Part shown: piece after piece, positions 8,427 to 59,851 of the stretch
How positions within the stretch are numbered: position 1 is the stretch's first letter
Layout of the letters: each line of letters opens with the position of its first letter
From: Acidobacteria bacterium bin61
GTDB lineage: Bacteria > Acidobacteriota > Vicinamibacteria > Marinacidobacterales > Marinacidobacteraceae
Direction: 5' to 3'
DNA: 64,000 nucleotides
Assembly (NCBI GenBank): GCA_002238705.1
Contig: MPMW01000002.1
Location: forward strand, 462-64,461
Notes under the pieces: model-generated
What the model saw: the letters and a program-made list of their open reading frames with translations, nothing else
What the model was told of the DNA's origin: nothing
Databases searched by the model: none
Translations under genes and position numbers: made by a program

Positions 8427-8605
8427 CAGCCTGGTGTGGTGTCCCGGGAATGGCGCGAGTCACCGAGAGCGGCGGGGCGCCCGGCTGACAAGGCTCGAAT
8501 CGGGAGGGATACCCAGTGTATTCCGACTGATTCGGAACGCGGAGCTTAGCGGCTCAGCCGGGATGCATCGCCGGTCGGATGCCGTGCGATCTCCGGGACA
8601 CTGCA
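8427..8605 (+). repeat. MITE-like intergenic repeat, copy A (ADE subfamily, + orientation)
   Basis: Begins cagcctggtgtggtgtcccgggaatggcgcgagtcaccgagagcggcggggcgcccggctgacaagg... It shares the core ...gaatcgggagg.ata.c..gtgtattccgactgattcggaacgc.gagc..agcggctcagccgggatg with copies D and E. It starts 7 nt upstream of the grpE start region. Its 3' part supplies the C-terminus and stop of the lipoate-ligase ORF. The right end is approximate. Confidence 0.7.
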
Positions 8606-9387
8606 CTGGCGCGCGGCTTCCAGATCCCGGCGAAACGACACGCCGAGCGCGGCCGCCACCTCACCGACCGCGGGAGGTGTCGCCTCCGGTCCGGCGAGCG
8701 GGAGTTCGGCGAGGCCGATCGCTTCCACCGGGGATTCGGGCGGCAGACCGGCGAGCGAGTTGGTGAGGGCGCGGTTCACTGTCCAGGGAATGGAGCCGTG
8801 CTGGAGGAATGCGCCGCGGCGCCAGCGCTGGGCGCCGGCCACCAGTTTCTTTCCCTGTGCGGTGATTTCGTGGCCGGTCGCCACCGCGTGACAGGGGAGA
8901 CGAGGGGCCTGGGGGTCGCGGGGCGGGGGCGCCGCCGGGGGGGAGGGGGGTCGTGGGTGTGGCGGGGCGGGGGCCCGGCGGGAGGGGGATCGAGGCGAAC
9001 GAAGCGGGCGACCGCCGTCCAGATGCATCCCATCACGCGAAAGTAGGCGCCCCGGACCCCCGGTGCGAACCCCCGGGGCGCGGCAAACGCGTAGGTGAGT
9101 TCGTCCGGCAGGTGCAAGAGGGCTCGCCCCCCGGTCGGGCGGTGAACCCAGGCAATCCCGAGAGCGGCGAGTGCGGCCGGATCCGTGGCGGTCTCGGGAG
9201 TTTGCCCATGTCCCAGGGTCAGGGTGGGCCGGGACCAGCGATAGAGACGAAGCGTTGGACCAGCGCCCATCGAGGCTCGCTCGAGCAACTCCCGATCCCG
9301 CCGCATGTTGGCCTCCCCATCCATGGGGGTTTCCCAATCCGCGAGCAGGCGAAGTCCGGTGCCCTCCTCGGGCGCGCCGGGGTTCAT
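8546..9387 (-). CDS. lipoate--protein ligase / octanoyltransferase family protein (BPL_LPL catalytic domain), reading frame disrupted
   Basis: The N-terminal half lies in one frame (MNPGAPEEGTGLRLLADWETPMDG...PTLRLYRWSRPTLTLGHGQ...). The C-terminal half lies in another (...GHEITAQGKKLVAGAQRWRRGAFLQHGSI..., the LplA/LipM-type lysine motif). The frame change maps to the G-rich low-complexity stretch around 8875-8991. The total length suits a ~280-aa single-domain ligase. Confidence 0.6.
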
Positions 9388-9401
9388 GCCCTTCGGTCCA
9401 A

Positions 9402-9570
9402 CAGCGGGTGGCGAAACCCCCGCGGCGTTCAAGCGGCGATGCATCCCGGCTGAACCTCGCCGCCGTTCGGCGCTCTGCGTTGCGTTCTGGTCCAAATACA
9501 CCTGTATTCCCCCCTTGCACGCCTTGTCAGCCGGGCGCCTCGCCGCTCACGCGGGTTTCACCACAGGCTG
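9402..9570 (-). repeat. MITE-like intergenic repeat, copy B (BC subfamily, reverse orientation)
   Basis: cagcgggtggcgaaacccccgcggcgttc...ccggctgaacc...gttgcgtt...aaatacacctgtattcc...ccttgtcagccgggcgcctcgccgctcacgcgggtttcaccacaggctg. Nearly colinear with copy C. It fills the ald-stop to ligase-start gap, ending 15 nt upstream of the ligase ATG. Confidence 0.75.
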
Positions 9571-9594
9571 GCAACGGTTCCCGGGCCGGGTCGA

Positions 9595-10710
9595 TCAGGC
9601 GATCAGTTCGTCGAGCGACTGAAATTCACGACCTTGCGATTCCGCGACGGGCCGGCAGGTGAGGCGGCCCGCATAGGTGTTCACACCGGGACGCAGGCAA
9701 CCGTCGCGGCGCACGGCCTCCTCGAATCCATGGTTGGCGATCGTGAGGGCGTACTCGAGCGTTACGTTGGTGAGCGCGTAGGTGGAGGTTCGGGGCATGG
9801 CGCCGGGCATGTTGGCGACGCAGTAGTGGACGACCCCGTCCACGACGTAGGTGGGTTTCGAGTGGGTGGTGGGCCGGGTCGTCTCGCAGCAGCCACCCTG
9901 GTCTACCGCAACGTCCACGATGACTGCACCTTCACGCATGGCGGCAATCATCTCGCGGGTGATGATGCGGGGTGCGGCCGCACCGGGAACCAGAACCGCA
10001 CCGACAACGAGGTCCGCTTCGGCGAGTGACGAGGCAAGCGTCACCGCACTCGACTTGAGGGTCGTGACGCGGCTCCCGAAGATGTCGTCGAGGTACCGCA
10101 TGCGGGCGGAACTCTTTTCCAGGATCGTGACCTCGGCGCCGATTCCGACGGCGAGCTTGGCGGCGTTGAGTCCCACGACGCCCCCGCCGACAATCACGGC
10201 TCGACCCCGGGGGACTCCCGGAACGCCGGCCAGCAGGATTCCCGAGCCTCCGCAGGAGCGGTGCAGGTGGTGCGCGCCTTCCTGGATCGCCATGCGGCCC
10301 GCTACTTCGCTCATGGGCGTCAGGAGCGGCAGGCTTCCGTCAGGCGCGGTGATGGTCTCGTAGGCGATCGCCGTCACTCCCCGGGACAGCAGTCCCTCGG
10401 TCAGTTCGGGCAGGGGAGCCAGATGGAGATAGGTGTAGAGAACCTGCCCTTCGCGGAGAAGTTCCACCTCTTCGGGCTGAGCCTCCTTGACCTTGATGAG
10501 GAGATCGCAGGTGTCGAACACCTCTTCGCGAGTCGCCGCGATCTGCGCGCCCGCGGTTGCGAATTCCTCGTCCGAGATCAGACTGCCGCGACCGGCCCCC
10601 GCTTCGACGAGCACCTCGTGGCCGGCGGCCACCAGGGTGTCGACACCTCCCGGAACCAATCCGACCCGGTTCTCGCTGTCCTTGATCTCCCGAACCGTAC
10701 CGATCCTCAT
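9595..10710 (-). CDS. ald: alanine dehydrogenase
   Basis: 371 aa. [40 protein letters not shown] and the Rossmann motif [27 protein letters not shown] match Ald (AlaDH/PNT family). Confidence 0.9.
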
Positions 10711-10751
10711 CGAACGCTCTTGTCCTTTCCTCTCCTGGTCCTGCCCTGGTC

Positions 10752-11186
10752 CTACGCTGCTCCTGCCGCGGTCCTGCCCCGCTCCTCAGTTGCCGCTCTT
10801 GTCTCCGGCGTTATCCTCGGTTCCGGTTTCGCTTCCGACTTGGCGCGGCTCCGCACGGTGCCCTCGAAGGTGGCCCCGGCATGCACGACCACCGTGGCGG
10901 CAAGAATTCCTCCGGTGAGGATCCCGGACGCGCCGATCTCCGCCTTTTCGATCGCCTCTACATCGCCTGTCATCCGGCCGTGAATGGTCACGTTCCGCGC
11001 CAGGATGGCGGCCTCGACCTGGCCGCCCTCCGGAATGAGCACCGCCGCGGTGCTCTCCACGGAGCCCTTGAGGCGACCCTGGATGCAGATGTCCTCGCGA
11101 GTCGTGATCTTGCCTTCGACACGGGTGTCCTGCCCGATCCAGGTCGAGCGGGCGCCCCGTTCGGGAGCGGGAGGCGTTTCGGTCAT
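10752..11186 (-). CDS. bactofilin family cytoskeletal protein
   Basis: 144 aa, ATG at 11186. Repetitive beta-helix signature: [29 protein letters not shown]...[29 protein letters not shown] (DUF583/bactofilin). The upstream part of the long ORF-track entry is spurious. Confidence 0.8.
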
Positions 11187-11252
11187 GAATGCCTCTTCTT
11201 CATTGGTGCGACGGAATAGGGCCATGAGACGGGACGGAACAGGGAAAGAGGA

Positions 11253-11328
11253 TGGAGCGGGCGACGGGGTTCGAACCCGCGACACCGAGCTTGGGAAGCT
11301 CGTACTCTGCCAACTGAGATACGCCCGC
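11253..11328 (-). tRNA. tRNA-Gly (anticodon CCC)
   Basis: Minus-strand sequence GCGGGCGTATCTCAGTTGGCAGAGTACGAGCTTCCCAAGCTCGGTGTCGCGGGTTCGAACCCCGTCGCCCGCTCCA folds as a cloverleaf. The 7-bp acceptor stem and GTTCGAA T-loop are present. The anticodon loop is TTCCCAA and CCA is encoded. Closely resembles canonical tRNA-Gly. The predicted 10:25 pair is U:U. Confidence 0.9.
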
Positions 11329-11344
11329 CCGGGAGCCGGTGATT

Positions 11345-12766
11345 CTACTCGGCGCGAGCCCGTGGCCGTCGCCTGGGGCTGGCTGCCGTCCGTTCGCCGG
11401 CACGCTCCAGTAGCGCCAGCAGTTCGTCGCGGCGGTCCTCGGCGAGTCCTTCGCGGTACGCCTCCAGGGTGAGCCGCATCACGGGTTCGGTGTTCGATGG
11501 CCGAAGGGTGAAGCGCCAGTCGGGAAAGTCCATCGTGAGTCCGTCCAGCGTGTCGACCCTCCCGCCCGGGAAGCTCTCGCGCACCAGGTCGAACGCGGCC
11601 GCCGGGTCGGGAACCACCCGGCTTTCCTCGTCGACAGTGAAATAGCGCCGGCGCAGGTCGCCCGCCAGCTCCGAGAGGGACCTTCCCGAGTCCCGGATAC
11701 GCTCGATCATGAGCAGGATGGGCAGCAAGGCGTTGTCCGCGTAGCCGGCGGCTCGAAAGAAGAAGTGCCCGCTGAGTTCTCCCCCGAATCGGGCGTCCTC
11801 CTGTCGCATCCGGCGCTTCAGGTAGGCGTGTCCGACACGGCCGGCGCGGGGTCGGCCGCCGGCTCGCGTCACCTCGTCCGGCACCGCCCGGGAGGACCGC
11901 AGGTCGAACACGATCGGAGTGCCCGGCTCCTTGGCGATCTCGGCAGGAGCCAGCAAGGCTGTCGTGAAGTCTCCGGGAATGTGCCCTCCCTGGTCGTCCA
12001 CGAAAACACAACGATCCGCATCCCCGTCCCACAGGACACCGAAGTCGGCGCCCTCCTCAAGGACCCGGCGCCGGAGAGGCTCCCGGTTTCGGGGATCAAG
12101 AGGGTTGGCGCCGCGGCTCGGGAAGTGGCCGTCGGGCCGGAACTGCACCGCCAGAAACTCTCCGGGGACGGCGGAGAAGACCTCGGCCGCCATGAGACCC
12201 CCCATCCCGTGGCCGGCGTCGAGCACCACGCGGAGCGCCGGGAGGGAACGGAAGTCGACCACGCTTTCCAAAAACGCCCGGTAGTCGCCGGCGATATCGC
12301 GTGGTGGTCCCGTCTCCGGGTCCTCGGGCAGGTCGGCTGGCGGCCCCGGAACTTCGTCGACGAGCCGCCGGATGTCCGGCAGTCCGTTCTCCTGGAAAAC
12401 CGGGGCGGCATCGCGCTCCACGAGCTTGATGCCGTTGTCGCCGGGCGGGTTGTGGGAGGCCGTGATCACGGCCCCGCCGTCCAGGCGGTCATGCCGGACG
12501 GCAAACCACATGGCGTCCGTCGGCAACATGCCGTAGTCGAAGATCTCGACGTTCGGCGCCTCCAGGCCCGCTCGGAACGCCCGGGCGAGCGCCGGACTGG
12601 TGAGCCGGGCGTCGCGCGCCATGCCGATTCGTCCGCCGCCAAGCCAGGTGGCGAACGCTCGGCCGACCCGCCACGCGAGTGACGGAGACAATGGCTCCGG
12701 CGCCGCCCCACGGATGTCGTAGGCCTTGAACAGCCCGGCTTCAGCGGGGTTCAGTTCTTGAGCCAT
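11345..12766 (-). CDS. phosphomannomutase/phosphoglucomutase (alpha-D-phosphohexomutase family)
   Basis: LFKAYDIRG N-terminus, active-site TASHNPPGDNGIKL, and an FGGELSGH-type sugar-binding loop. ATG at 12764-12766. Overlaps the upstream NTP-transferase gene by 16 nt. Confidence 0.85.
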   Translation of the reverse strand: MAQELNPAEAGLFKAYDIRGAAPEPLSPSLAWRVGRAFATWLGGGRIGMARDARLTSPALARAFRAGLEAPNVEIFDYGMLPTDAMWFAVRHDRLDGGAVITASHNPPGDNGIKLVERDAAPVFQENGLPDIRRLVDEVPGPPADLPEDPETGPPRDIAGDYRAFLESVVDFRSLPALRVVLDAGHGMGGLMAAEVFSAVPGEFLAVQFRPDGHFPSRGANPLDPRNREPLRRRVLEEGADFGVLWDGDADRCVFVDDQGGHIPGDFTTALLAPAEIAKEPGTPIVFDLRSSRAVPDEVTRAGGRPRAGRVGHAYLKRRMRQEDARFGGELSGHFFFRAAGYADNALLPILLMIERIRDSGRSLSELAGDLRRRYFTVDEESRVVPDPAAAFDLVRESFPGGRVDTLDGLTMDFPDWRFTLRPSNTEPVMRLTLEAYREGLAEDRRDELLALLERAGERTAASPRRRPRARAE

Positions 12767-13827
12767 GGAACGGTGCTGTGAGCGGCAACGGTGCTCTTGT
12801 CGCCGAGGACCGCCCCCGAGAGGGAGGCTCCCGGACCGATGAAACTGCTCACGCCCAGAATCGCCTCGGTCACGGTGGCGTCCTCGCTGATGCGGGTGTG
12901 CGCCCACAGGATCGAATCCCTTATGCGAGCGTTGGCCTCCACCCGCACCCGGCGCCCGAGCACCGCGTAGGGGCCGATCTCGGCTCCTTCGCGTACCTGT
13001 GTTTCGGGGCCCACCAGGGAGGGGCCGATCAGACGGGCGCCTGGGTGAACGGAGGCGGTTTCGTCCACGATGACGCCACCGGGATTGGGACGCCCGACTC
13101 CCGGAATCCGGATCTTGCCGTCGAGGGCGTCGCGGTGCGCCTGGCGGTAACGCGAGATGACCCCGATGTCCGTGAAGTAGCCCGCGTGCCGGTGCGCGGC
13201 GACCGGTCGCCCGGCCGCAACAACCGCGGGGAACACCTCGTGTTCCAGCGAGGACGCGCCCTTCCCGGGAAGGAACTCGAAGATGGCCGGGTCCATGACA
13301 TAGGCGCCCACGCTGATTTTGCCCGGCCCCGGCGAGTCCGGCTTCTCCGTGAATCTGACGACCCGCGGTGGTCCGCCGGTCGGGAGGTCTTCGGCCTCGA
13401 CGACTCCGTACGGCGACGCGTCGGCCACCTGGGTCAGCGCGAGCGTAAGGGTGGCGCGGGCGGATTCGTGACTCCCGACGAGCGCCCGAAAATCAAGATC
13501 GGTCAGTGCGTCGCCGTTCAGGCACACGAAAGGCTCGGAGAGCAGCGACTTCACGTGTCCGATGGCGCCTCCGGTACCGAGCGGTTTCGGCTCCACCGAG
13601 TAACGGAGGGACACCCCGAACGCGTTGCCGTCACCGAAGGTGGCCTCGATCCGCCGCGGGAGCGAGGCCAGGCAGAGAACGATGTCGGTGATCCCCGCCT
13701 TGCGAAGCAACTCGAACTGGGTGACGAGGAAGGGGCGGGTCAGGAGGGGGACGATCGCCTTGGGACGGCGAAAGGTCAGGGGGCGCAGCCGTAGCGCCTT
13801 CCCCCCGATGAGAATGACCGCCTTCAT
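12751..13827 (-). CDS. mannose-1-phosphate guanylyltransferase-like sugar nucleotidyltransferase with C-terminal left-handed beta-helix
   Basis: MKAVILIGGKALRLRPLTFRRPKAIVPL... is the NTP-transferase G-x-G-T-R-L motif family. C-terminal hexapeptide repeats are present. Adjacent to the PMM gene (manC/manB-like pair). Confidence 0.85.
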   Translation of the reverse strand: MKAVILIGGKALRLRPLTFRRPKAIVPLLTRPFLVTQFELLRKAGITDIVLCLASLPRRIEATFGDGNAFGVSLRYSVEPKPLGTGGAIGHVKSLLSEPFVCLNGDALTDLDFRALVGSHESARATLTLALTQVADASPYGVVEAEDLPTGGPPRVVRFTEKPDSPGPGKISVGAYVMDPAIFEFLPGKGASSLEHEVFPAVVAAGRPVAAHRHAGYFTDIGVISRYRQAHRDALDGKIRIPGVGRPNPGGVIVDETASVHPGARLIGPSLVGPETQVREGAEIGPYAVLGRRVRVEANARIRDSILWAHTRISEDATVTEAILGVSSFIGPGASLSGAVLGDKSTVAAHSTVPWLKN

Positions 13828-21435: not shown

Positions 21436-21490
21436 CAGCCTGTGGCGAAAGTGACGTGAGCACCGAGAATGGCAAGGCGCCCGGTCGCCG
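21436..21490 (+). repeat. 5' fragment (solo left end) of the MITE-like repeat, copy F
   Basis: cagcctgtggcgaaagtgacgtgagcaccgagaatggcaaggcgcccggtcgcc matches the first ~50 nt of the full element in + orientation (cagcctgtggtgaaacccgcgtgagcgccgaga..ggcgaggcgcccg...). It exactly fills the fmt-start to def-stop gap. Confidence 0.5.
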
Positions 21491-23190: not shown

Positions 23191-25464
23191 GTGCCAACCA
23201 TGGACCGGCCTTTGCAGACACCGCCGACGCGTGCCGGCCACGCCGCGGATACGAGCTTCGACGCGCGGGTGGCCGGGATGCACTGCGCCGGCTGTGTGGC
23301 GAGCATCGAAAAGGCAGTCACCAGCCTCCCGGGGGTCGCAAGCGCCGAAGTGAGCCTGCTTACCGGGGATCTCTCGGTACGGTTTTCTGAAATCGGAGCA
23401 GCGGGCGCGGCACGCGCCGCGGAGATCGCCGGCGCCGTAGCCTCGGCCGGTCCCTACACGCTGGAGCCAACGCGGGAAACCGCTATCGAATCTTCCGGGC
23501 AGGACGGGGCAACCGGGCCGCACACACACTCGGGGGGCGGACTGCTGCCCGTCGCCGCGGCCCTCGCACTTTCCGCGGCGGCCATGGCCGTCTCGATGAG
23601 TGGCATGGGGGGGACCGCTCTCGGCCGGTGGACCGTGTTCCTGCTCGCAACGCCCGTGTGTGTGCTGTTTGGCTGGAACTTTCTGTTGGCGCTCGGAACC
23701 TCGCTCCGGAACCGGGCGTTCGGAATGGACAGCCTGATCGGGCTGGGGGCGGGGACCGCTTACGTGTCGTCGGTGGTGAGCCTGTTGGGCGCCGCCGGGG
23801 GACCCCTGTTCTTCGATACCGCCGCGATCATCGTCGCGATCGTTCGCCTCGGGCGCTGGCTCGAGGATCGCGCCCGGAACCGGGCCGCGGACGCGCTCGG
23901 AGAACTGCTCGCCTTCGCTCCCGATGAGGCGCGGGTGGTACGTGAAGGCGTTGAGGAAATGGTGGCGGTGGCGCGCGTCGAAACCGGCGAGCGGGTTCGG
24001 GTGCGCCCCGGAGAACGGGTGCCCCTCGATGGCCGCATCGTCCGCGGTGGAGCCGCGATGGACGAATCGCTGGTGAGTGGGGAGAGCGTCCCGGTGGAGC
24101 GGGCGGCGCCCGATCCGGTGGTTGCCGGGGCGATGAACCTGACCGGCGCCGTCGAAATCGAAGTGACGCGCGCCGCTTCGGAGAGCACCCTCTCGCGGAT
24201 CGCGGCGGCGGTCCGAAAGGCGCAGACCGAGAAAATCCCCCTGCAACGGGCCGCCGACCGGGTGGCCGGGGTCCTCGTCCCGGTCATCATGGTGGTCGCC
24301 GCGGTGACCGTCGGAGGTTGGCTCCTTTGGGGCGGCGCCGCCGACTTCGCGCTCGCCCGCGGGGTGGCGGTGCTGGTGGTGGCCTGTCCCTGTGCGGTCG
24401 GGTTGGCGGCCCCCATCGCGGTGCTGGTCGCGACCGGCCGGAGCGCGCGGCGGGGGATTCTGTTCCGGTCCGGGGGGGCGCTCGAGGCCCTGGCTTCCGT
24501 CCGAGCGGTCGGACTCGACAAGACCGGGACGGTCACCACGGGCGAACCCGTGGTGGTCGCGCTGGAGCCGGCTCCGCCACAGACCGCCGGGACCCTGCTG
24601 AAACTCGCGGCTTCGGCGGAACAGGGATCCGAACACCCCCTGGGAAGAGCGCTTGTCGCCCACGCGGAGAAGGAAGGGACGGGGCTCAGTACCCCGGAAC
24701 GCTTCGAGGCATTGCCCGGGCGGGGCGTGACGGCGAGCTTTGACGGCGGGAACACCACGGTGTGGGTCGGAAGCGACCGGCTGGTTCGCGAGCGGGGCCT
24801 GTCCGTGCCCGCCAGCCCGGCCAGCAGCGGGGCGTCGGGCTGGCTTCGGGTGCTGCGTGAATCGGCGGGGCGTCTCGAGTTCGCGGGTAGCATCGGGTTT
24901 CGGGATCGGCCGCGTCCGGAAGCGGCGGAACTCGTCCGCAAACTCCACGAGGACGGGCTGGCGGTGTCGCTGGTTTCCGGCGACGAACCCGCCGCGGTCA
25001 CGGCAACCGGCTCGGAGATCGGAGTTCGTAACGTTGAGGGGGGACTTCTCCCGGACCAGAAGCTCTCGGCGGTGGATCGGCTGCGGGAGCGCTACGGTCC
25101 GGTCGCCATGGTCGGGGACGGCATCAACGACGCTCCGGCTCTGACCCGCGCCGACGTTGGTATCGCTTTTGCCGAGGGGACGGAGATCGCCCGGGAGGCG
25201 GCGGCAGTGACGCTGATGCGCCCGGACCTCAGGCTCGTGAGCGAAGCCCTGCGGATCGCGCGGCGCGCACTGCGGACGATCCGGCAGAATCTGTTCTGGG
25301 CTTTCTTCTACAACGTGGTCTCGGTGCCGCTCGCGGCCGGCGTCCTGTATCCGTCGACCGGGCTGTTGTTGCCGCCGGAGGCGGCAGCCGCCGCCATGGC
25401 GCTCTCCTCACTCACGGTGGTCGGGAACGCGCTCCGCCTCAGGTTCGGAGCGGGAAGCAGCTAA
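23191..25464 (+). CDS. copA: heavy-metal (copper-type) translocating P1B-type ATPase
   Basis: N-terminal HMA domain (GMHCAGCVASIEKAV). Membrane CPC motif (VVACPCAVGLAAPIAV). Phosphorylation site DKTGTVT, HP motif and GDGINDAPAL. Confidence 0.9.
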   Translation: MPTMDRPLQTPPTRAGHAADTSFDARVAGMHCAGCVASIEKAVTSLPGVASAEVSLLTGDLSVRFSEIGAAGAARAAEIAGAVASAGPYTLEPTRETAIESSGQDGATGPHTHSGGGLLPVAAALALSAAAMAVSMSGMGGTALGRWTVFLLATPVCVLFGWNFLLALGTSLRNRAFGMDSLIGLGAGTAYVSSVVSLLGAAGGPLFFDTAAIIVAIVRLGRWLEDRARNRAADALGELLAFAPDEARVVREGVEEMVAVARVETGERVRVRPGERVPLDGRIVRGGAAMDESLVSGESVPVERAAPDPVVAGAMNLTGAVEIEVTRAASESTLSRIAAAVRKAQTEKIPLQRAADRVAGVLVPVIMVVAAVTVGGWLLWGGAADFALARGVAVLVVACPCAVGLAAPIAVLVATGRSARRGILFRSGGALEALASVRAVGLDKTGTVTTGEPVVVALEPAPPQTAGTLLKLAASAEQGSEHPLGRALVAHAEKEGTGLSTPERFEALPGRGVTASFDGGNTTVWVGSDRLVRERGLSVPASPASSGASGWLRVLRESAGRLEFAGSIGFRDRPRPEAAELVRKLHEDGLAVSLVSGDEPAAVTATGSEIGVRNVEGGLLPDQKLSAVDRLRERYGPVAMVGDGINDAPALTRADVGIAFAEGTEIAREAAAVTLMRPDLRLVSEALRIARRALRTIRQNLFWAFFYNVVSVPLAAGVLYPSTGLLLPPEAAAAAMALSSLTVVGNALRLRFGAGSS

Positions 25465-25643
25465 CAGCCTGTGGCAAAACCCCCGCGGCGTTCGACGTGC
25501 GATCCATCCCGGCTGAACCGCGCCGCTTTGCGGCGCTCATCGTTGCGTTTCGGCCGAAATACACCGGGTATTCCGGCCTCACGCGCCTTGTCAGTCGGGC
25601 GCCTCGCCCGTCTCGGCGCTCACGCGGGTTTCACCACAGGCTG
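25465..25643 (-). repeat. MITE-like intergenic repeat, copy C (BC subfamily, reverse orientation), complete with terminal inverted repeats
   Basis: 179 bp: cagcctgtggcaaaaccc...tttcggccgaaa...gggtttcaccacaggctg. The TIRs are cagcctgtgg..aaaccc / gggtttc..ccacaggctg. It lies between the copA stop (25462-25464) and the stop of the convergent DUF349 gene (25644-25646), with no spare nucleotide. Confidence 0.8.
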
Positions 25644-28574
25644 TTAATCCCGGCGCGGCCGGTTTCCGCGAGCGCGGCCGCGATTCCGGCGACCGGGTTC
25701 CTCGTCCAGCGACGGCGCCCGGGCGATGACCTTCCGGGCGAGTCCTTCGAGGCGCCCCATCGTTTCGGTCGCCGGTCCCGATAGCGCCGGACCGGCGGCA
25801 CGGGCGCGCTCGAGAATCCTGGCCGCATCCTGTGCGGCTTCCCTGAGCACGGCGCCGCGATCCGCGGCGCGCCCTGCCTGGAGGGTGCGCCTCAGGTGCT
25901 CCGCGAAGTCGATCACTCCCCCCTCGGACGCGACCGGCGCGCGAGGTCGCGCGAGCGCTTCCATCTCTTCAAGCAGGGCCGCCAGCCGCGAAACCAGTTG
26001 TTCCTGGTCCAGGCGCGTCCCCGAAAAGGAATCGGGATCACCCTCGAGTGTTTCCCGAAGGCAAGTGAGGAGGGCGCTGGTGGTTTCGCGGGCCAGGCGG
26101 TCCCCCGCGCGGGAAATGCGCCGGTAGTCGTCCCAGAGCGCGACGGCGGCGTCGCGCCGCTCTTCCGCCGCCAGGGCGAGGAGGTCCGCGATCCGACCTC
26201 GCAGATCGGCGTCGGCTTCACTGGAGGGCGTGCGCTCGGGCACCATGGTGGTTTCGGCCTTCGCGTCTCCACGGCCTTCGCGGAGCCGGTCCCGAGCCCC
26301 GTCACAGGCACTGCGGAAGTCCTCCCAGAGGCGATCGCCCTCCTTGCGCGGGACGGGCGGTGACTCTTTCCACTCCCGCATCAAGTCGCGCACCGCGTTC
26401 CGCACGGTCTCGCCGTCGGTTTGGTCGAAGAGCGCCTTGGCCCGCGCGATGAGATTCTCGCGGATCGGGACGTTCGCGGCGAACTCCGCGTAGCGCTTTT
26501 TCCTCACTGCCTTGAGTTCGCTGAAGTACTGGTCGTTTGCGGCGCGGAATCGCTTCCACAGCCGCTCCGAGCGCTTCCCGATTCCCTTGGCGCGCTCGCG
26601 CCACTCGGGCATCAGCGAGCGAATCTCGTCGGCTCGCCGCGGATCGCCGCTCTCGGCTATCTGCTCTGCCTTTTCGACGAGCGCACGAAGCGCATCCAGC
26701 TTCTCGCCCAATTCGCGCTCCGCGGCTTCCCGGAGCGGGCCGATCCGTTCGAGGAGGGTTCGGCGGACCTCACCCCATTCTTCCCAGAGTTCCTGACCCC
26801 GGTCGCGTCCCGTGTGTCGCGCCGCATGCCAGGCGCGTTCGAGGGCCGTGAGCTCGCGATCGACGCGCTGCAGATCCTCCACCTCGACCAGCGCGCCAGC
26901 CCGGCGAATGAGTTCCGCCTGTTCCTCCAGATTGGACCAGTGACGCCACTCCCGGACTTCTCTGGCCTCCCGAAGCCTGGGCATCAGGGCCGCCTGAAGA
27001 CGCTGGAAACGGGTTTGCCGCTCGGGTCCGACCTGACGCCAGACGGCTGCATCGCTTCTGAGTTTCCCAAGTTCGCGAAGGGCGACCTCGCCGTCCTCGA
27101 GGGGAAAGGACTCCGACGATTCGAGCGCGGCAAGACGTTCCTCGAGGGCGGCGATCCGTCCCTCGGTCGTGCGGACCTGGTCCTGGTGCGCGGACTCGGC
27201 CGCGCCCAGCGCGGTTTCGGCTTCTCTGGCGGCCTTCCGGAACCGCTCGGCGTCCGGGCTTTCGGGTGGCTCCAGGCGATCGAACCGGCGCCCGAGTCGG
27301 GTCAGTTCCCGGCGAGACTGTGCTATTTCCGGCCCGGAGGGACGCTTGCCGAGCGATTTCGCCAGGGAAACCGCATGATCGGCCAGTTCGCCGATCTGAA
27401 ATTCCCGGACCCGGGCCTTCTTGCGCTCCAGAGCCCGGTCTCGCGCCTTCGCCACCGCGGCGCGCAACCGGGCGCGGACCGGTTCCGTGGAGGTCAGCCC
27501 TTCCAGAAGCGTGAGGCACTCCCGTTCGGCCAGGTCCAGTTCGGCCAGACCTGGAGCGCCTTCAGGGTCTTCCAGGCGGGCAAGAATTTCTTCGACCGCC
27601 GGCGGGAGGTCGGGCGACCGCTCGGGCTCTTCGACCGGAGGGAGATCCACACCCCCGGAAGCGGTCTGTTCCTCCGGGACGAGAAGCCGCGCCGCTCGCT
27701 CGTCGCGGGATCCCCCGCCCTCAAGCCGCACGCGCAGTTCTTCGAGCCGCGCGGTGAGTTCAGCTCCTACCGGCCCGGAGGCGAGGACGGCGTCGGCCTC
27801 CTCAAGCAGGCCCGCGTTCCGGTCGGGAGCCGCCGGATCGGCGTCGGCAAGGCGCTCCAACAAACCGCCCAGGGTTTTTTCCCGAAGCTGCACGCGTTCC
27901 GGATGATCTGGAGGCAGCCGTTCGTCGGCGCGGCGCCGGGCAAGCCGGCGCACGCTCTTCGAGGTCGCGCCGGTTGCCGCGGCGAGCAGCAATCCCGGGT
28001 CGTCCAGCCGCCGGACGGCAGCTTGGGCGGTCTCGCGGTGCTCTGCCGAAACCGCCACCTGAAGGAGGCCGTCCGGGCTGCGGATTGCCTCGAGGGCGTG
28101 GCTCCGGAGGGCCGGCTCCGCGGCTTTTCCAGCCACCGTGGCGAGGGCGGTATCGCGGTCGGCCTCGCCCGCGGGGACACTGGTCAACCGTGCGAGTGCC
28201 TCGGTGCGAATCGGGCCGAAATGGGCCCGGCACGCCACCTCGGCGACTGCCCGCAGCGCGCCGAGGAGTCCGAGCGCCCGCCGCGACTCATCCTCGTCCC
28301 GGTCGTCGGCCGCGATCTTGACGAGGAGTGCCTCGCCTCGGGAGCGGGCCAGCCGGCGGGCGCTCTCGTCGCCCGCGGTATCCGTCAGTTCGAGCAGCAC
28401 CCGGGGTGCTTCGAGGCGCCGCACGGCCTCTTTCCGGACGCGCGAGTCGGGATCCGAGCGCGCGAGATCGGCCAGCGTTTGCGTGTCCTCCGGCGGGTGT
28501 TTCTGGACCGCCTTGAGGCGGACGGCGGCGTCCCGGCTGCGGATCGGAGAAACGAATCGTTCGAGAACGGACAT
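25644..28574 (-). CDS. large DUF349-repeat protein with N-terminal HEAT-like repeats
   Basis: 976 aa from ATG 28574 (MSVLERF...). Repeated ~75-aa helical units end in LMPEWRERAKGIGKRSERLWKRFRAANDQYF and LMREWKESPPVPRKEGDRLWEDFRSACDGARD (DUF349 W..G.V.....LW.RF..ACD signature). The N-terminus has RVRKEAVRRL-type HEAT repeats. An upstream AT-rich stretch (gaatatagatgc) looks promoter-like. Confidence 0.7.
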   Translation of the reverse strand: MSVLERFVSPIRSRDAAVRLKAVQKHPPEDTQTLADLARSDPDSRVRKEAVRRLEAPRVLLELTDTAGDESARRLARSRGEALLVKIAADDRDEDESRRALGLLGALRAVAEVACRAHFGPIRTEALARLTSVPAGEADRDTALATVAGKAAEPALRSHALEAIRSPDGLLQVAVSAEHRETAQAAVRRLDDPGLLLAAATGATSKSVRRLARRRADERLPPDHPERVQLREKTLGGLLERLADADPAAPDRNAGLLEEADAVLASGPVGAELTARLEELRVRLEGGGSRDERAARLLVPEEQTASGGVDLPPVEEPERSPDLPPAVEEILARLEDPEGAPGLAELDLAERECLTLLEGLTSTEPVRARLRAAVAKARDRALERKKARVREFQIGELADHAVSLAKSLGKRPSGPEIAQSRRELTRLGRRFDRLEPPESPDAERFRKAAREAETALGAAESAHQDQVRTTEGRIAALEERLAALESSESFPLEDGEVALRELGKLRSDAAVWRQVGPERQTRFQRLQAALMPRLREAREVREWRHWSNLEEQAELIRRAGALVEVEDLQRVDRELTALERAWHAARHTGRDRGQELWEEWGEVRRTLLERIGPLREAAERELGEKLDALRALVEKAEQIAESGDPRRADEIRSLMPEWRERAKGIGKRSERLWKRFRAANDQYFSELKAVRKKRYAEFAANVPIRENLIARAKALFDQTDGETVRNAVRDLMREWKESPPVPRKEGDRLWEDFRSACDGARDRLREGRGDAKAETTMVPERTPSSEADADLRGRIADLLALAAEERRDAAVALWDDYRRISRAGDRLARETTSALLTCLRETLEGDPDSFSGTRLDQEQLVSRLAALLEEMEALARPRAPVASEGGVIDFAEHLRRTLQAGRAADRGAVLREAAQDAARILERARAAGPALSGPATETMGRLEGLARKVIARAPSLDEEPGRRNRGRARGNRPRRD

Positions 28575-39454: not shown

Positions 39455-39754
39455 GCCTAGTGTGGTGTCCCGGAAATGGTGCGAGCCACCGAGAGCGGCG
39501 AGGCGCCCGGCTGACAAGACGCGAATCGGGAGGAATGCCGAGCGTATTCCGACTGATTCGGAACGCCGAGCGCAGCGGGTCAGCCGGACTCACACCGGGA
39601 GAAACGGGCATCGCCGCTCGCTTCCGGAGCGGGGCGAGAGCCCCGCGGAGACCCCTTGAGCGCGAGGGACGGAGGTTGGCGCCCAGCCAACCTCCATTCC
39701 TCGTGGCTCGGGCATGCCGTACCATTTCCGGGACACTGCACGGGCAGCCTGTGG
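39455..39754 (+). repeat. MITE-like intergenic repeat, copy D (ADE subfamily, + orientation, with ~130-bp internal insertion)
   Basis: Starts immediately after the tsaB TAG. Left TIR gcctagtgtggtgtcccggaaatgg. Right TIR ccatttccgggacactgcacgggcagcctgtgg. Core ...cccggctgacaagacgcgaatcgggaggaatgccgagcgtattccgactgattcggaacgccgagcgcagcgggtcagccgg... Confidence 0.8.
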
Positions 39755-39898
39755 AAAACATCGCCGGTCAGCGGGCCCACCGGGAGAACCCGGCCTCGCC
39801 ATTCTCGTTGCTCACTTCACTTGCTCAACGGGCTGCTTGTTGATGATTTTCCGAAGCGGTTCCGGACGTGGAAACCGGACAGCTTCCTGGAGGCGTTC

Positions 39899-45100: not shown

Positions 45101-46145
45101 CGGGAAGAGCGGCGAGAGTACCGAGCAGAAGCGCCAGAGTCGCGTAGAGAGCGGCTTCCGCTTCCCGTTCCGCGCGGCGCGCCGCGACGGGCGCGACGGC
45201 GGTGCTGGCGGCGCCGAGCAGTTGACCGTCGTACGCCCGGAGGGCGAAGTAGTACCGCTGCCCGTCGGCAGCACCGTCGAGAAAGCGGTCGCCGCGCCGC
45301 TCGAAGAGCTGAGCCAGGGCTTCGAAGTCCTCGGCTCCGTCCAGAAACTGCGTTTCGAGGCCCCGTCCGGCCGCGGATTCGAGCGCCGAGAGCGGAGCGG
45401 CGCCGGAGGAGGGAGGGGACGCTTCCCGGAGGGGCACTTCGACCGTGACGAGACCGAGGAGATTCCGGGTGCATTCCGCGGCAGCCAGGTAGTTGCGCCG
45501 GCCTCCCTCGCTATAGACGAAGAGCGGAAACGCCGGATCCGGACAGTGTTCCTCCCGGACGCCGTCGGGAAAGACCTCCCCGAGCGACGCCTCGAAATCC
45601 GGGTTCCCGCCGGACCAGGCGACCGGCCGCAGTTGCCGGTCATAGAGCGTTGCCCCGGCGTCGCCGATCCCGGTTCCGGGAAGCACCCACTCGGCGAGAG
45701 CACGGAAGGCCTGGGACTCGGTATCCCCGGCGTCCGAGCCCTCGAGCGCGGCGGCCACCTCCGGAGTCCGAGCCACCAGGTAGGCGGAATCGCCTACCTC
45801 CCGGGTGAGGTCGGCCAGAAAGCCGTCTACCCGGTCTGCCGCCCGGGCAGCCGATTCCGGACCTGCCGTGATCGTTCGACTCAGCGGGATGCGGCAACCG
45901 AGGGCCAGGAGTGCCGCCCCGGCCACGATCACGACGGTGCGCCGGGTACCGGAGCTCAGGAGATCGCGCCGGATCAGGGGGACGATCACCACCACCGCCG
46001 CACCCGCGGCCAGGATGGCGTGAACAGCCCCGGGCAAGGCGGTGAACCGGTTCGCGGCGTCGGCAAGCCCGGCCGCGAACAGCGCGAAGGCTCCCGCGAC
46101 CATCAGGAAAGGCGGCAGACGACGCGTCTTCATGCCTCGATTCAC
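42192..46145 (-). CDS. large multi-TM sensor histidine kinase (HAMP–HisKA–HATPase_c), no adjacent response regulator
   Basis: 1317 aa. ~10 hydrophobic segments and two large extracytoplasmic loops. Then HAMP (RLAAPVRGLARATGRIADGDL), H-box VAHDIKNALAPI, N/G1/G2 boxes (LQNALEAT...VEDNGPGVP...GSGLGLA). Confidence 0.85.
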   Translation of the reverse strand: MNRGMKTRRLPPFLMVAGAFALFAAGLADAANRFTALPGAVHAILAAGAAVVVIVPLIRRDLLSSGTRRTVVIVAGAALLALGCRIPLSRTITAGPESAARAADRVDGFLADLTREVGDSAYLVARTPEVAAALEGSDAGDTESQAFRALAEWVLPGTGIGDAGATLYDRQLRPVAWSGGNPDFEASLGEVFPDGVREEHCPDPAFPLFVYSEGGRRNYLAAAECTRNLLGLVTVEVPLREASPPSSGAAPLSALESAAGRGLETQFLDGAEDFEALAQLFERRGDRFLDGAADGQRYYFALRAYDGQLLGAASTAVAPVAARRAEREAEAALYATLALLLGTLAALPGLWRSGDLGRLAAIWTLRFSLSALFGTLPSGPGAALPAFLSDTPLLPVLGDSPLMAAVTAAALLVSARIVATRLRPGSRSKTAGGVHALLRGLGAGGTAVAAAALVRSAGFAGGAPLTPTWALHTRWPEVLGWVALLLALAGLLLLLQSLLRPEIPVMVAAAAVIAVSVAVLPGGSFLFAGLPLLAGTAVVFWRRGRLSLRHLRRPLVTHEPGFSFLVAFLLFAVPPVLLYPAMVWHEDNVRQRYALDAVPVQTLRHRFAVCHALEEATRTLDGEASSLLRLRPDTAYRLWLATGLPRLTVASELEVWGPGGGRSRFAVGLPRRPDPPSSAPSPPRWSPVPGCEANPGIEAVLATERQFPSGLSVTLRVADRASEIPFLPRAAGIADHFLLRGDAALAVFRGRDLRLGRRSSLPAEREEQRVGFGVLVHGEPFVVSWRRTSLADHAAALLGWGFLAALMALLVAVGARTRLLFPHGGGRLRRRSFQMQLTETLAAAVLIAILGVAVFAQQRLGVLLQSTSDREAISRSFSVQRVAQELAALDPLVAREELALRLAQAADQLDTDAALYNGGELVAVSRPELAQTGLLPPRPPPAAILPSPSPEPFLSIQDAGSLRYRIVWIRLDAPTRLHGPLLLAVPLPADEAARLESVRAIQRTLILGSGSLALIFAIVLPALVARRLAAPVRGLARATGRIADGDLQARVPVHGTLTELRLLAASVERLVRRIPDVRRRMREEAAADLARRVAHDIKNALAPIGLAADYIQRVQREPRGEDPQRAVDESVSEILDQVERLRRISSEFSALGAPLRLEETDVTKLVEETVGPYRRPNVRPRVSFAGSPTPAARVDPEIVARIVENLLQNALEATHDFPELTSDEAEVSVRVFPVRRDRWVHVEVEDNGPGVPKGLRERIFDAAFSTRTRGSGLGLANARRFTEAHGGRVSAGPRADGRSGLLLTVELPTAGPRKREA

Positions 46146-46236
46146 AGGCTGCTAGGGTAAAGGTTCGTCTGGCTCCCCCCGGTCGCCGGCCTGCCCTCCG
46201 CATGCAGAATGCGGGCCAGGCGAACCACACGAAAAG

Positions 46237-49613: not shown

Positions 49614-49620
49614 GGCTCCC

Positions 49621-54386: not shown

Positions 54387-54391
54387 TTCCG

Positions 54392-56551: not shown

Positions 56552-56558
56552 GCACGTC

Positions 56559-57452
56559 GTGACCGATTCCGCACCGGGCCTGCCCGTGTCGCCCCCGACG
56601 GGTGATCCGCCGGTCGCCTCGCCGGCGGGCGCCTCGCCGGCGGGGGGCGCGGCCGCGGGGGCCGGGGCGGCGGCCTCGCCGGGGGGCGCCGAGCCGGCGG
56701 TAGCCGAGCAGGAGTCCGGCGCCGGACATGTCCTCGCCTGTCAAGACCTGATCAAGACCTACGGAATGCGCCGGGTCGTGAATGAGGTGACGGTCCGGGT
56801 GCAAAGCGGCGAAGTGGTCGGCCTGCTGGGTCCGAACGGAGCGGGGAAGACCACTACGTTTCGCATGATCGTCGGATCGATCCAGCCTGATCACGGCACC
56901 GTGTTCCTCGATGATCGGGATCTCACCGGCCTCGCCATGCATCGCCGCGCCCGTTCGGGAATCGGATACCTCCCGCAGGAGCCATCCATCTTCCGTGGAC
57001 TCACGGTCGAAGAGAACGTGCTGGCAATCCTCGAACAGGTGCCACGGATGGGGCGGCGGGAACGGCGCGAGCGGGCCGAGGAGCTGCTTCGGGAATTCGG
57101 CCTCACCGAGCGCCGGCGCAACCTGGGACATTCCCTCTCCGGCGGCGAACGGCGGCGGGCTGAAATCGCCCGGGCCCTCGCGCCTGATCCGCGGTTCCTG
57201 TTGCTCGACGAACCATTCGCCGCGATCGATCCGATCGCGGTCTCCGAGTTGCAAGGGATCGTCGGGAGTCTGCGCGACCGGGGGCTCGGCGTGCTCGTGA
57301 CCGACCACAGCGTTCGCGAAACGCTCCGGGTAACCGACCGGGCCTACATCATCGAGGAGGGCCGGATTCTGTTTGAGGGCACCCCCGGGGAGCTCGTCCG
57401 CAGTTCCGAGGTACGCCGCGCCTACCTCGGCGAGGACTTCGAGTGGCAGTGA
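56559..57452 (+). CDS. lptB: LPS export ABC transporter ATP-binding protein LptB, with a P/A/G-rich N-terminal extension
   Basis: Walker [10 protein letters not shown], signature LSGGERRR, Walker B LLLDEP. Aligns with E. coli LptB from [12 protein letters not shown]. The only in-frame start upstream of that block is GTG 56559, which gives a ~55-aa low-complexity leader. Confidence 0.8.
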
Positions 57453-58939
57453 GCACCAAGTCCGGGACCCGAACCGAACTGCGAGTCGGCGTTCGCCAGC
57501 AGCAACGCCTCACCTTGACGCCACAGGTAAGGCAGACCATCGAGATGCTCGTGCTGCCGCTTACGGAACTCCGGGTTCGGGTGCAACAGGAGTTGCTCCA
57601 GAACCCGGCGCTCGAAGAGGTGGCCGAAGAGGAGGAGGAGTCCGAATCCGAAGAGGCGGAGGCCGGGGAGGAGAACGAAACGGACGACAGTGCGCCGGAT
57701 GACGAGCCCGACCCGATGGCGGAGATCGAAGCCGAGGACTTTTTCCAGGAAAACCAGGACAACACCGGGGGGCTCGCCCTCGGCGAGGAACCGCCCGCCC
57801 TCGAGCGGACCCTGGCCGCCGGACGCACCCTCGCCCTGCATCTGATCGAGCAACTCGGTCCGTCCGTCGAGACGGAACTCGAGCGAACGATCGGCCTGGA
57901 AATCATCGGAAACCTCGACGAGAGGGGGTATCTCGATGCCTCGGTCCCGGAGATTGCCGGCAGCCTGGGTGTCGCGGAAGAGCAAGTCGAGTCGATGCGG
58001 AGGCGTATCCTGCGTTTCGATCCCACCGGCGTCGCCGCTCTGGATCTGGGGGAATGCCTGCTCGCGCAGCTCGAGGCGGCCGGCCAGTCCGGTGGGCCGC
58101 TCGGCAGAATCGTGCGGGAACATCTGGATCTCGTCATCCGGGAACGCTTTCGGGAACTTGCCAGCGTCATGGGCAGCGATATTTCGGTCGTGATGCGCTG
58201 GGTTCGCCGCATCGGGGAGCTGGACTTTCGTCCGGGCACTCAGTTTTCGCCGGGTCCGGAGCAAGTCGTGGTGCCGGATGCCCGGGCGTACCAGTTCAAC
58301 GGGGAATGGCGCGTCGAAATGAGTGACGGGATCCCGAAGCTCCGCACCAGTCCGGCCTACCGGGTGGTGCTGAAGACTCCCGACCGGCACACGCCTGAGG
58401 AACAGGCCTTTGCGCGCGATGCCTGGGTCCGCGCCAAGGGATTCCAGCGCTCGGTGCAGCAACGCCAGGAGACCGTTCGACTCGTCGCCGAGGACATCGT
58501 GCACAAGCAGACCGATTTCCTGAATCGCGGAATCGCCCATATCCGGCCGCTGGTCCTGAACGACGTCGCACAGGACATCGGACGGGCGGAGTCCACGGTG
58601 TCGCGCGTCGTGAGCAACAAGTTCCTGGAGACTCCCCGTGGAGTGATCCCCTTCCGGCGGTTCTTTCACAGCGCCCTCTCCCTTCGCGACGGACGTCAGG
58701 TGTCGTCGGAGGCGGTCCGGGCCCGGGTTCAGCGGATCGTGGAACGCGAAGATCCGCAGCACCCACTGGCGGACGACCAGATCGTTCAGCTCCTCGACCG
58801 CGAGGGGATCATGATCGCCCGCCGTACAGTGGCCAAGTACCGCAAATCCCTCAAGATTCCGTCTTCCAACGAACGGCGCGCCCGCTATCGCAACCGTGCT
58901 CCCGGACGGATTCCCGGCTGGGGACCCGCCAGGAGTTGA
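57443..58939 (+). CDS. rpoN: RNA polymerase sigma-54 factor
   Basis: Region I ([16 protein letters not shown]), acidic region II, and the C-terminal RpoN box [20 protein letters not shown] start overlaps the lptB stop. Confidence 0.95.
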
Positions 58940-58972
58940 CCGGCAGCGGCGGCTCCCCGATACTGCCCGGCG

Positions 58973-59464
58973 ATGATCGGTATTGTCGTTGTCACCCACG
59001 GGCAATTGGCGCGGGAACTCGTTGCTGCCGCCGAAATGATCACCGGCGAGGACATTCCCAACGCCACCAGCGTTTCCATCGGTTGGCACGACGCGCCGGA
59101 CGATGCGCAGCGAGCCATCGTGACGGCGGTCGAACGGGTCTCCGGAAAGGAGGGGGCCGTGATCCTCACGGACATGTTCGGCGGCACGCCGTCCAATCTC
59201 GCCCTCAGTCTGCTCAAGGAGGGTCAGGTTGAAGTTGTGACGGGAGTCAACCTGCCCATGCTGATCCGCCTCGTCTCGATCCGCGAGGAGGAGCGGGTCG
59301 GACCCGCCGAAGCGGCGCGGGCGGCGCTTTTTCAGGGCAAGGAGAACATCTATCTCGCCTCCGAATTGCTCGGTGGCGGGCTTGGCGCAGTTCCGGCGGC
59401 GGAGGAGTCCGAGGAAGCGGCCGAGACGGCCGTGGAGAATCAGGTCGGGCCGGGCCAGGACTAG
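58973..59464 (+). CDS. PTS EIIA component, mannose/sorbose class (PTS_EIIA_4)
   Basis: MIGIVVVTHGQLARELVAAAEMITG...VILTDMFGGTPSN is the ManX-N/EIIA-Man fold with the active-site His in the VTHG context. Confidence 0.8.
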   Translation: MIGIVVVTHGQLARELVAAAEMITGEDIPNATSVSIGWHDAPDDAQRAIVTAVERVSGKEGAVILTDMFGGTPSNLALSLLKEGQVEVVTGVNLPMLIRLVSIREEERVGPAEAARAALFQGKENIYLASELLGGGLGAVPAAEESEEAAETAVENQVGPGQD

Positions 59465-59851
59465 TGTGGTGTCCCGTAAATCGTGCGAGTCACCGAGAGC
59501 GGCCCAGTTGCTATGGAAGAACGAACTCTGTCTTACATGTGGCGGGGTGAGCGGACGGACCGATCATGGACATTTCTCCCGGTGGGGGCGGCGCCCGGCT
59601 GACCCAGTTCTCCCGGTCGGGGCGGCGCGAATCGGGAGGAATACCGGGTGTATTCCGACTGATTCGGAACGCCGAGCGCAGCGGTTCAGCCGGGATGAAA
59701 CGCAAGGTCGCTTCGAAGCGGTACCCGCTGCATTCCCGCTGGCCCCCACCGGGAGACCCAGCCTGTCCTCCCGGTGGGGGTCAGCGAGGCCCGGCGGGCT
59801 CAGTTCTCCCGGTGAGGGCTCCGGGGCTCACGCCGGTTGCACCACAGGCTG
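59461..59851 (+). repeat. MITE-like intergenic repeat, copy E (ADE subfamily, + orientation, two internal insertions)
   Basis: Starts on the EIIA TAG: ctagtgtggtgtcccgtaaatcgtgcgagtcaccgagagcggc... Core gaatcgggaggaataccgggtgtattccgactgattcggaacgccgagcgcagcggttcagccgggatg. Right TIR ggttgcaccacaggctg ends at 59851, 33 nt upstream of the HPr start. Confidence 0.8.

Follow-up and report, generated by a model that had tools for sequence, protein, structure and literature searches.

The window analysed here is a 64,000-nucleotide stretch of contig MPMW01000002.1 (positions 462 to 64,461) from Acidobacteria bacterium bin61, an uncultured organism, and its G+C content is 68.7%. Several gaps between its genes hold copies of a short, non-coding repeat. 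A sequence-only reading of this DNA had marked six related loci and likened them to miniature transposable elements with inverted repeats (MITEs), and repeat detection, alignment, BLAST and nhmmer all bore out the relationship among the six. We are confident, short of certainty, that the copies are non-autonomous DNA transposons of a Vicinamibacteria lineage, and their core is probably selected in single-stranded form. As transposons they are ordinary MITEs; what is new is that one folded core is shared across classes of transposon ends and that its fold is asymmetric between the strands.

Copies of the repeat in the window

Five copies bear the core of the repeat (A, B, C, D and E) and two further pieces, F and D2, are fragments. 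The earlier tally of five full copies and one fragment therefore stands for the core-bearing copies and falls one fragment short, D2 having been overlooked. With an nhmmer profile built from copies A, B and C, the E-values were 9.7e-54 for C, 3.1e-48 for B, 1.7e-42 for A, 3.3e-24 for D, 4.5e-18 for E and 2.4e-06 for F. A covariance model scored C at 195.8 bits, B at 123.9, A at 120.3 and the cores of D and E at 45.6 and 41.1, and a scan of the 64 kb with this model, filters off, returned no copies beyond those five. The loci themselves had been placed correctly, and their boundaries needed correction for A, C and D, as given below, and for E, which is composite.

An lplA-like gene has copies A and B on its two sides, with grpE and ald beyond them, and all three genes are on the minus strand (Pfam). 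Copy A (8434-8606, plus strand, 173 nt) occupies the gap from grpE to the lplA-like gene; its terminal repeats, GTGTGGTGTCCCGG…CCGGGACACTGCAC, are of the IS630 type and enclose a core without the hairpin that we call P6, and a duplicated TG flanks the copy at 8432-8433 and 8607-8608. The ‘cagcc’ at 8427-8431 is native flank and is present too at the orthologous site, empty of the element, in locus L105 of the related metagenome-assembled genome (MAG) CAXXLQ01. Copy B (9401-9571, minus strand), a MITE of the IS1182-like type, has lost 10 nt internally, and its ends, CCACCCGCTG, are decayed; it occupies the gap from the ald stop (9595) to the lplA-like start (9388), where CA stands on either side of it (9399-9400 and 9572-9573). 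The claim that copies always fall between genes nearly holds, the departure being the lplA-like open reading frame (ORF), which runs about 60 nt into A (stop codon at 8546-8548) and gains an element-encoded C-terminal tail and stop codon; its orthologue in CAXXLQ01 stops at the TAG of the empty site. Inside the same gene, a G-rich 44-nt tandem duplication (8894-8981) reads on the coding strand as a proline-rich stretch, which is poorly conserved in the CAXXLQ01 orthologue.

Fragment F (21436-21484, plus strand) is a 5′ arm, model columns 1-48, of the IS1182-like type and the AAAGTGAC subfamily; it sits in the gap between def and fmt, both on the minus strand, and matches C, D2 and E by BLAST. 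Copy C (25464-25644, minus strand) has the canonical form and length of 181 nt, A-CAGCCTGTGG…CCACAGGCTG-T, and a duplicated TA flanks it at 25462-3 and 25645-6. At each of its ends, TA and the end base of the element together form the TAA stop codon of the neighbouring gene, a P-type ATPase gene on the plus strand (25462-4) and a DUF349 gene on the minus strand (25644-6).

Copy D (39460-39741, plus strand) is an IS630-type MITE with TA at 39458-9 and a covariance-model match to the core at 39496-39597. Its core is split by a 20-nt insert at 39588-39607 (CACACCGGGAGAAACGG), which resembles an 18-nt module discussed below, and by a 92-nt insert at 39621-39712. Copies had been described as flush with stop codons, which is true of C and E, and D begins 5 nt past the tsaB TAG (39452-4). 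Abutting D in the opposite orientation is D2 (39745-39836, minus strand), a 92-nt internally deleted derivative of the IS1182-like type that carries one 18-nt module (39776-39793). BLAST aligned the D2 stretch with F at 84% over 45 nt (E 1.9e-07), and short units resembling D2 also occur in the related loci L043, L099 and L089.

Copy E lies inside the EIIA-man / HPr-ptsI gene row (Pfam). Its left part (59464-59704, plus strand) consists of an IS630-type left terminal repeat and the core, and the EIIA stop codon, TAG at 59462-4, is made of the TA target and the first G of the element; this part also holds an 84-nt remnant of the IS110 family (59504-59587) and an 18-nt module (59604-59621). The middle (59705-59780, no strand assigned) contains two diverged module copies, one reversed at 59743-59759 and one at 59762-59780. 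The right part (59781-59852, minus strand) is an inverted and truncated 5′ arm of the IS1182-like type with a module at 59800-59817, and it ends …CCACAGGCTG-C, then TG. Elsewhere in the window, TCACAGGCTG/CTAG at 46142-46155, in a divergent gap beside the start of a 1317-aa gene, may be a solo terminal repeat or a chance occurrence of the 10-mer; by our own estimate about four near-matches are expected per 64 kb, and we excluded it from the counts.

Ends, parents, target site and passengers

Beyond the window, an exact-pattern scan over one genome per species gave more than 112 stretches among the matches listed. We sampled related genomes as 8-kb slices bearing the repeat (the L-numbered loci), so that copy numbers per genome are lower bounds. 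A profile search of related MAGs had been proposed with the sequence-only reading, and more copies do exist: nhmmer found 186 in 880 kb, all within 15 Acidobacteriota assemblies. The hosts belong to Vicinamibacteria and ‘Ca. Marinacidobacterium’, with MAGs whose names suggest a sponge origin, and it is from the names of related MAGs alone that we take the habitat of the lineage to be probably marine or sponge-associated. By the same profile, 24 loci that had matched the pattern by chance, from Actinomycetes and other phyla, held no copies, and viral contigs scanned with the invariant 22-mer gave no matches. Complete MAG chromosomes built from long reads contain the family too, and the window’s own arrangement recurs in more than ten independent assemblies from ENA and JGI samples. 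Proteins identical to the window’s lie on contigs of several ENA and JGI metagenomes, and its Ald is 91% identical to that of CAXXLQ01. Our literature search found no paper on MITEs of Vicinamibacteria or ‘Marinacidobacterium’.

The copies are not one family with one type of end: the terminal repeats of two unrelated transposase families stand around the same core. The terminal motifs had been read as layers of a single terminus, and they proved to be two different classes of terminal inverted repeat, CAGCCTGTGGTGAAAC / GTTTCACCACAGGCTG and GTGTGGTGTCCCGG / CCGGGACACYRCAC. B, C, F and D2 have 16-18-nt terminal repeats in common with 1.5-kb insertion sequence (IS) elements that encode an IS1182/IS5-like DDE transposase. 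One such parent, 1516 bp long (L008:183-1698), reads TTAA/CAGCCTGTGGTGAAAC…CCACAGGCTG/TTAA and has one 484-aa ORF matching DUF772 (1.8e-16) and DDE_Tnp_1 (1.1e-10); the best NCBIfam model for this ORF is IS1182 (1.7e-43), at 149 bits against a cutoff of 270, which is why we stop the assignment at ‘IS1182/IS5-like’. Termini of identical type bound the IS copies of L119 (transposase 91% identical to that of L008) and L120 (63%), one of which abuts a MITE. A, D and E instead have IS630-family terminal repeats, GTGTGGTGTCCCGGAAAT…, flanked by TA. The GTGTGGTGTCCCGGAAAT terminus appears in more than 120 of the metagenome stretches listed, where most occurrences flank short TA-bounded MITEs with unrelated interiors, and A-type termini bound a 1142-bp element (L214:410-1551) whose 364-aa ORF scores 273 bits against a transpos_IS630 cutoff of 100. 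The search for a cognate transposase thus succeeded, in other contigs, and the suggestion of an IS200/IS605 TnpB-like parent fails on two grounds: the elements have inverted repeats and a duplication, and the parents found encode DDE enzymes.

A third end class, TA/GGAGYCTGTCCCGGTAAT…ATTACCGGGACAGGCTCC/TA, likewise surrounds this core, and five copies in other genomes have it (L064:4879-5049, L002:5773-5942, L063:1238-1408, L030:4687-4857 and L001:6622-6792), and in these the sequence of the P5 hairpin is altered in a compensatory manner. Among 152 core-spanning matches, 124 are IS1182-like at both ends, 5 have ends of the third class, and the IS630-type or chimeric ones are few. Origin of the core from the interior of a parent IS was considered and rejected, as the MITE consensus matches the parent only over the terminal 18 nt.

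The MITE copies are 173-181 nt long and non-coding, 60 of 125 full copies being exactly 181 nt; they have no conserved reading frame, and their variation follows the stems. Canonical flanks read yTA/R-CAGCCTGTGG…CCACAGGCTG-Y/TAr, so that the element is R, 179 nt and Y, and TA is duplicated within a YTAR target. Of 124 full copies, 66 are bounded by TA at each end, and in 59 of these 66 the base next to TA is complementary between the ends (G-C in 33 and A-T in 26, with G·T in a further 5). Flanking 4-mers read as direct repeats agree less often than TA plus a paired end base, and tandem copies share one TA. The site of A is empty in CAXXLQ01, where the lplA-grpE junction reads GTGC[TA]GTCTGATT, and filled in the window, where it reads GCGC[CA]-A-[CA]GGCTGATT; the comparison gives a 2-bp duplication for A. 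We rejected a 4-bp YTAR duplication for the MITE, which would need mutated repeats in about a third of the copies despite a private divergence of about 0.6%. The MITE reading is therefore upheld by the terminal inverted repeats, the 2-bp (TA) duplication, the lack of coding capacity, the dispersed copies, the empty site and the matching IS termini.

Of 300 element ends in the related genomes, some 38 fall exactly on the stop codon of a predicted gene. The first base inside the TA is a purine and is paired with the last base, so that an element landing on the TA of TAA or TAG rebuilds a stop codon on either side, and this is why copies abut the ends of genes in a genome of 69% G+C, where TA is rare. 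The stop-rebuilding end likewise allows insertions to be tolerated inside compact gene rows and causes gene callers to extend ORFs into elements, as happened with the lplA-like gene. The gap between the DUF349 and ATPase genes is occupied in three species (the window’s, L107 and L068), always at the DUF349 stop codon, by a copy that is inverted in one species and of a different subfamily in the window. At the B site, CAXXLQ01 holds only a decayed remnant, and nested and tandem copies occur as well.

Non-canonical lengths step by 18 nt (199, 217, 235 and 253) because a module, CCAGTTCTCCCGGTGGGG, is embedded in the copies. It occurs in either orientation and sometimes in tandem, with hot spots at model columns ~35, 43, 75, 109-119 and 154, and it is found in other repeats too; variants in which an 18-20-nt module disrupts the P5 helix have still multiplied. 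Longer inserts, of 84-370 nt, start CCAGTT… and end …TTTCTCCCGGTGGGG. Where E has its 84-nt insert, a sibling contig (L245:2920-4692) has a full IS110-family element (DEDD_Tnp_IS110 and Transposase_20, 419 aa) that splits the module as CCAGTT/CTCCCGGTGGGG. The 18-mer is probably the target of this element, possibly with a TT core, and the simplest reading of the shorter inserts, found at that spot both here and in further genomes, is that they are internally deleted remnants of it. The sampled genome loci held no autonomous copy of the nested family, the full one being that of the sibling metagenome contig. Rfam gave no bridge-RNA match for the IS110 element, and a search for guide complementarity upstream of its gene returned only 6-nt matches to the 18-mer. 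IS621 and Pseudomonas members of the IS110 family insert into REP elements under the guidance of a bridge RNA; the likeness to IS110/IS1111 here lies in the nested IS110 element splitting a repeated 18-nt module, and not in the MITE itself.

Tandem 71-nt mini-units, each made of a terminal repeat, an 18-nt module and a short 3′-arm piece, run head to tail in arrays of up to six (L099:6740-7100, L043:1009-1150, L089:7100-7240 and L080:2113-2280). Other repeat families of the same genomes (L107:3290-3540, L049, L053 and L012 among others) often carry the 18-nt module, examples being …GGAACGCCGACCTCCGGTCGGCAC… and …CGCCGGCC[module]TTCAGACCGGCATCGCC….

A folded core with a favoured strand

All end classes enclose the same core of about 135 nt. 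In a gap-free alignment of 59 canonical copies, columns 40-103 and 125-145 are almost invariant across species and variation is concentrated in the stems. The RNAalifold prediction comprises a long helix that closes the structure, a second helix, an invariant one (CGCCCG-GCUGA / UCAGC-CGGGAUG) and a three-way junction bearing two hairpins, and 20 of its 60 pairs change on both sides. The core takes this fold on a single strand; the sequences at the junction hardly vary, while the stems change through compensatory and G·T steps. Alignment and RNAalifold show that the features picked out in the sequence-only reading are all real: the cccggctga/tcagccggg pair at long range, the hairpin at the centre and the division of the cores into two subfamilies.

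For counting, the P6 hairpin of the RNAalifold prediction was taken as fully paired, which gives 63 pairs. In this structure 97.2% of cells are paired; the figure falls to 90.8% after shuffling and to 32-41% if the structure is moved along the alignment. Cells changed on both sides number 205 where 55 were expected, a figure reached by none of 500 shuffles. G·T fills 303 cells and A·C 16; seven pairs have at least 10% G·T and none has at least 10% A·C. Outside the terminal repeats, 10 pairs covary and the corresponding counts are 179 and 10. The top strand is the more stable in all 59 copies, with a mean of -112 kcal/mol against -92.5. Copy C folds at -112.1 kcal/mol (z -8.5) against -98.6 on the other strand, on which its covariance-model score falls from 195.8 to 34.5 bits, and copy A folds at -101.8 kcal/mol (z -7.0) against -76.4. 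In A-type copies the architecture is retained, with another sequence in P4 and with P6 missing.

Singleton changes number 60 in the 59 copies, a private divergence of about 0.6%, and are spread evenly over paired and unpaired columns. In the small sample of 39 private changes that fall in paired columns, 23 break pairs, and G·T arises 9 times against 6 for A·C. Private mutations thus ignore pairing, so that the structural constraint is visible in inherited variation and not after insertion. In the whole window, Rfam 15 at the gathering threshold matched a single tRNA-Gly, and permissive Rfam scans of A/B and C gave only sub-threshold chance matches (E 0.28 or worse); the Rfam scan that had been suggested earlier therefore places the repeats in no family.

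The favoured strand is usually not that of the neighbouring genes. Relative to them the structured strand is sense in 15 cases, antisense in 31, between convergent genes in 25 and between divergent genes in 16 (p=0.026), stop-flush ends give 14 sense against 24 antisense, and at 45 of 65 loci most elements run against most genes (p=0.003), these being counts from crude GC3-based gene calls at loci chosen for holding the repeat. Orientation also follows a two-arc pattern in the complete chromosomes OZ244986 (p=0.006) and OZ252286 (p=0.024; permutation, loci L006-L109), which could reflect replication direction or gene-strand bias, and no regional pattern was found in CAXXLQ01 or CBDHFO01. Local GC skew was discarded as a proxy for replication, being too noisy in 8-kb loci. 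As for expression signals, 8300-9700 and 25300-25800, which include A, B and C, contain no hairpin followed by a T run on either strand, and the elements end …GGCTG-Y-TA without a T run.

What the core may do

We envisage that the copies are mobilised in trans, by cut-and-paste, by the IS1182/IS5-like and IS630 transposases, and that the rarity of TA at high G+C together with stop rebuilding would channel surviving insertions to gene ends. The core would be a passenger that comes under selection as a single strand while the element propagates; this selection would act on propagating lineages and not on each inserted copy, and the core would not serve as a sense-strand signal in host mRNAs. Of the two single-stranded forms, RNA seems likelier than single-stranded DNA (ssDNA), because two unrelated transposases that act on double strands are unlikely to need the same ssDNA fold; IS630 and IS5/IS1182-type DDE enzymes do act on double-stranded DNA. 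More tentatively, and as a proposal that may well prove wrong, we suggest that the core is a functional structured RNA or ssDNA module of a kind not yet described, a passenger of at least three end sets and two DDE families, and that its strand-specific fold, not the transposase-binding ends, decides which lineages multiply.

A rival reading is that these are plain selfish MITEs, in which the fold would be a by-product of palindromic origin and recent copying and the core itself would do nothing. Private mutations take no account of pairing, private changes of about 0.6% mean that recency explains much of the conservation, module variants that disrupt P5 still multiplied, and covariation in the outer helix follows the variants of the IS terminal repeats. 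The symmetry of double-stranded DNA or neutral decay would, however, predict parity between G·T and A·C, against the 303:16 counted (179:10 outside the terminal repeats), and ten pairs outside those repeats show repeated compensatory switches. The same core is moreover found between three end classes and two unrelated transposase families, and it has nothing in common with the parent IS, for which reasons we think it unlikely that the fold is a mere by-product.

Alternatively, the structured strand could act as ssDNA at the replication fork, either by a fold-back that aids excision or integration or by a hairpin whose stability would settle the orientation that survives. The whole element pairs from first base to last, ends included, the fold is strong with DNA parameters as well (-62.6 kcal/mol, z -6.9), and the P6 loop is often GCGAAGC, a very stable DNA mini-hairpin. 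The two-arc orientation in OZ244986 and OZ252286 would fit a role at the fork, yet CAXXLQ and CBDHFO show no regional pattern and replication direction is inseparable from gene direction in these data. With the improbability that two unrelated enzymes share a need for one ssDNA core, these points leave us doubtful of an action at the fork.

Elements that serve the host as RNA, whether as terminators, mRNA stabilisers or RNase III sites in the manner of Correia, ERIC or RUP, had been favoured by the sequence-only reading. Many copies do stand in 3′ untranslated regions, right up against the stop codon, some are found within gene rows (def-fmt; EIIA-HPr), and the 27-bp closing helix would be a substrate of the RNase III type. 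The regions of A, B and C nonetheless have no intrinsic terminator, with no site where a hairpin is followed by a T run, and no sigma-70-like promoter; the well-folding strand is mostly antisense to genes (15 sense against 31, and 14 against 24 at stop-flush ends), stems are not purged of mutations that follow insertion, and the empty orthologous site of A shows that its neighbour genes do not need the element. A sense-strand function in cis was rejected in particular, the orientation counts pointing the opposite way. We regard a host-serving role as quite improbable, and as the least supported when set beside the RNA and ssDNA readings above. Assembly chimerism or conserved coding sequence can be dismissed, since the origin of the window in a metagenome assembly is all that speaks for an artefact, while the arrangement recurs in more than ten independent assemblies, the family is in complete long-read chromosomes, and the variation is that of paired stems with no conserved frame.

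Several observations weigh against the readings we prefer. With regard to the 2-bp duplication, A and B are flanked by CA/TG and not by TA, the IS copy of L119 has TTAG on both sides, making 4 bp possible for the parent IS, and the trapped IS1182-family member ISPse1, of 1653 bp with 16-bp inverted repeats, makes 4-bp direct repeats (PMC3281130, Table 2). With regard to the parents, the IS1182 assignment rests below its cutoff, and a transposase of either family is absent from the 64-kb window, the parents being known from other contigs. With regard to the core, A, B and C contain no sigma-70-like promoter from which it might be transcribed, the covariation of the outer 19 bp partly tracks transposase variants through the terminal-repeat variants of the IS copies, private mutations come to 39 events, and the orientation counts have the coarse basis given above.

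Set beside known systems, the repeats belong to none of the named repeat or RNA families tested. The parents in L008, L119 and L120 resemble IS1182 in being 1.5 kb long, with one DUF772 and DDE_Tnp_1 ORF and inverted repeats of about 16 bp, and differ in scoring below the curated cutoff and in that the MITE flanks fit a 2-bp TA with a paired base over 4 bp. In the literature we found no description of MITE derivatives of the IS1182 family in Acidobacteria. The IS630-Spn1 transposase is believed to mobilise RUP of Streptococcus pneumoniae, with duplication of TA; A, D and E are like RUP in their IS630-type ends, TA in CTAG-like targets, length of about 170 nt and lack of coding, whereas the sequence is unrelated and the three-way-junction interior is here common to elements of another transposase family. 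Correia elements of Neisseria, ERIC and BOX are small, abundant and intergenic and form long hairpins when transcribed; Correia elements duplicate TA, and BOX is modular, as the 18-nt module makes these MITEs modular too. Unlike them, the elements described here have identified cognate transposases, a strand-specific covarying fold and an orientation that leans antisense. In sequence there is no evident resemblance to Correia, ERIC or RUP, which are functional analogues only, or to BOX.

Two other kinds of repeat do not fit. PATEs, derived from IS200/IS605 and partnered by TnpB and an omega RNA, have no inverted termini and no duplication, insert 3′ of a fixed tetra- or pentanucleotide and have subterminal hairpins, and are excluded by the terminal inverted repeats, the 2-bp duplication and the DDE parents. 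REP/BIME are palindromes of 20-40 nt with a GTAG/CGTC head and a linked RAYT gene; the unit here is 181 nt with a three-way junction and without that head, a RAYT gene not having been searched for.

What sets the repeats apart is that a near-invariant, covarying and strand-asymmetric fold recurs between ends made for two unrelated transposases, that the constraint on it is seen in inherited and not in private variation, and that the favoured strand is usually not the mRNA strand. Together these traits suggest that some stage or product of importance to the element is single-stranded, and to our knowledge cut-and-paste DDE elements are not supposed to need a single-stranded stage. The embedded 18-nt module, for its part, looks like a landing pad for IS110-family elements. 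If our proposal is true, these repeats would be a clean natural system in which to learn what makes a MITE successful, and their core would be a new and abundant structured RNA in a poorly studied, uncultured acidobacterial lineage.

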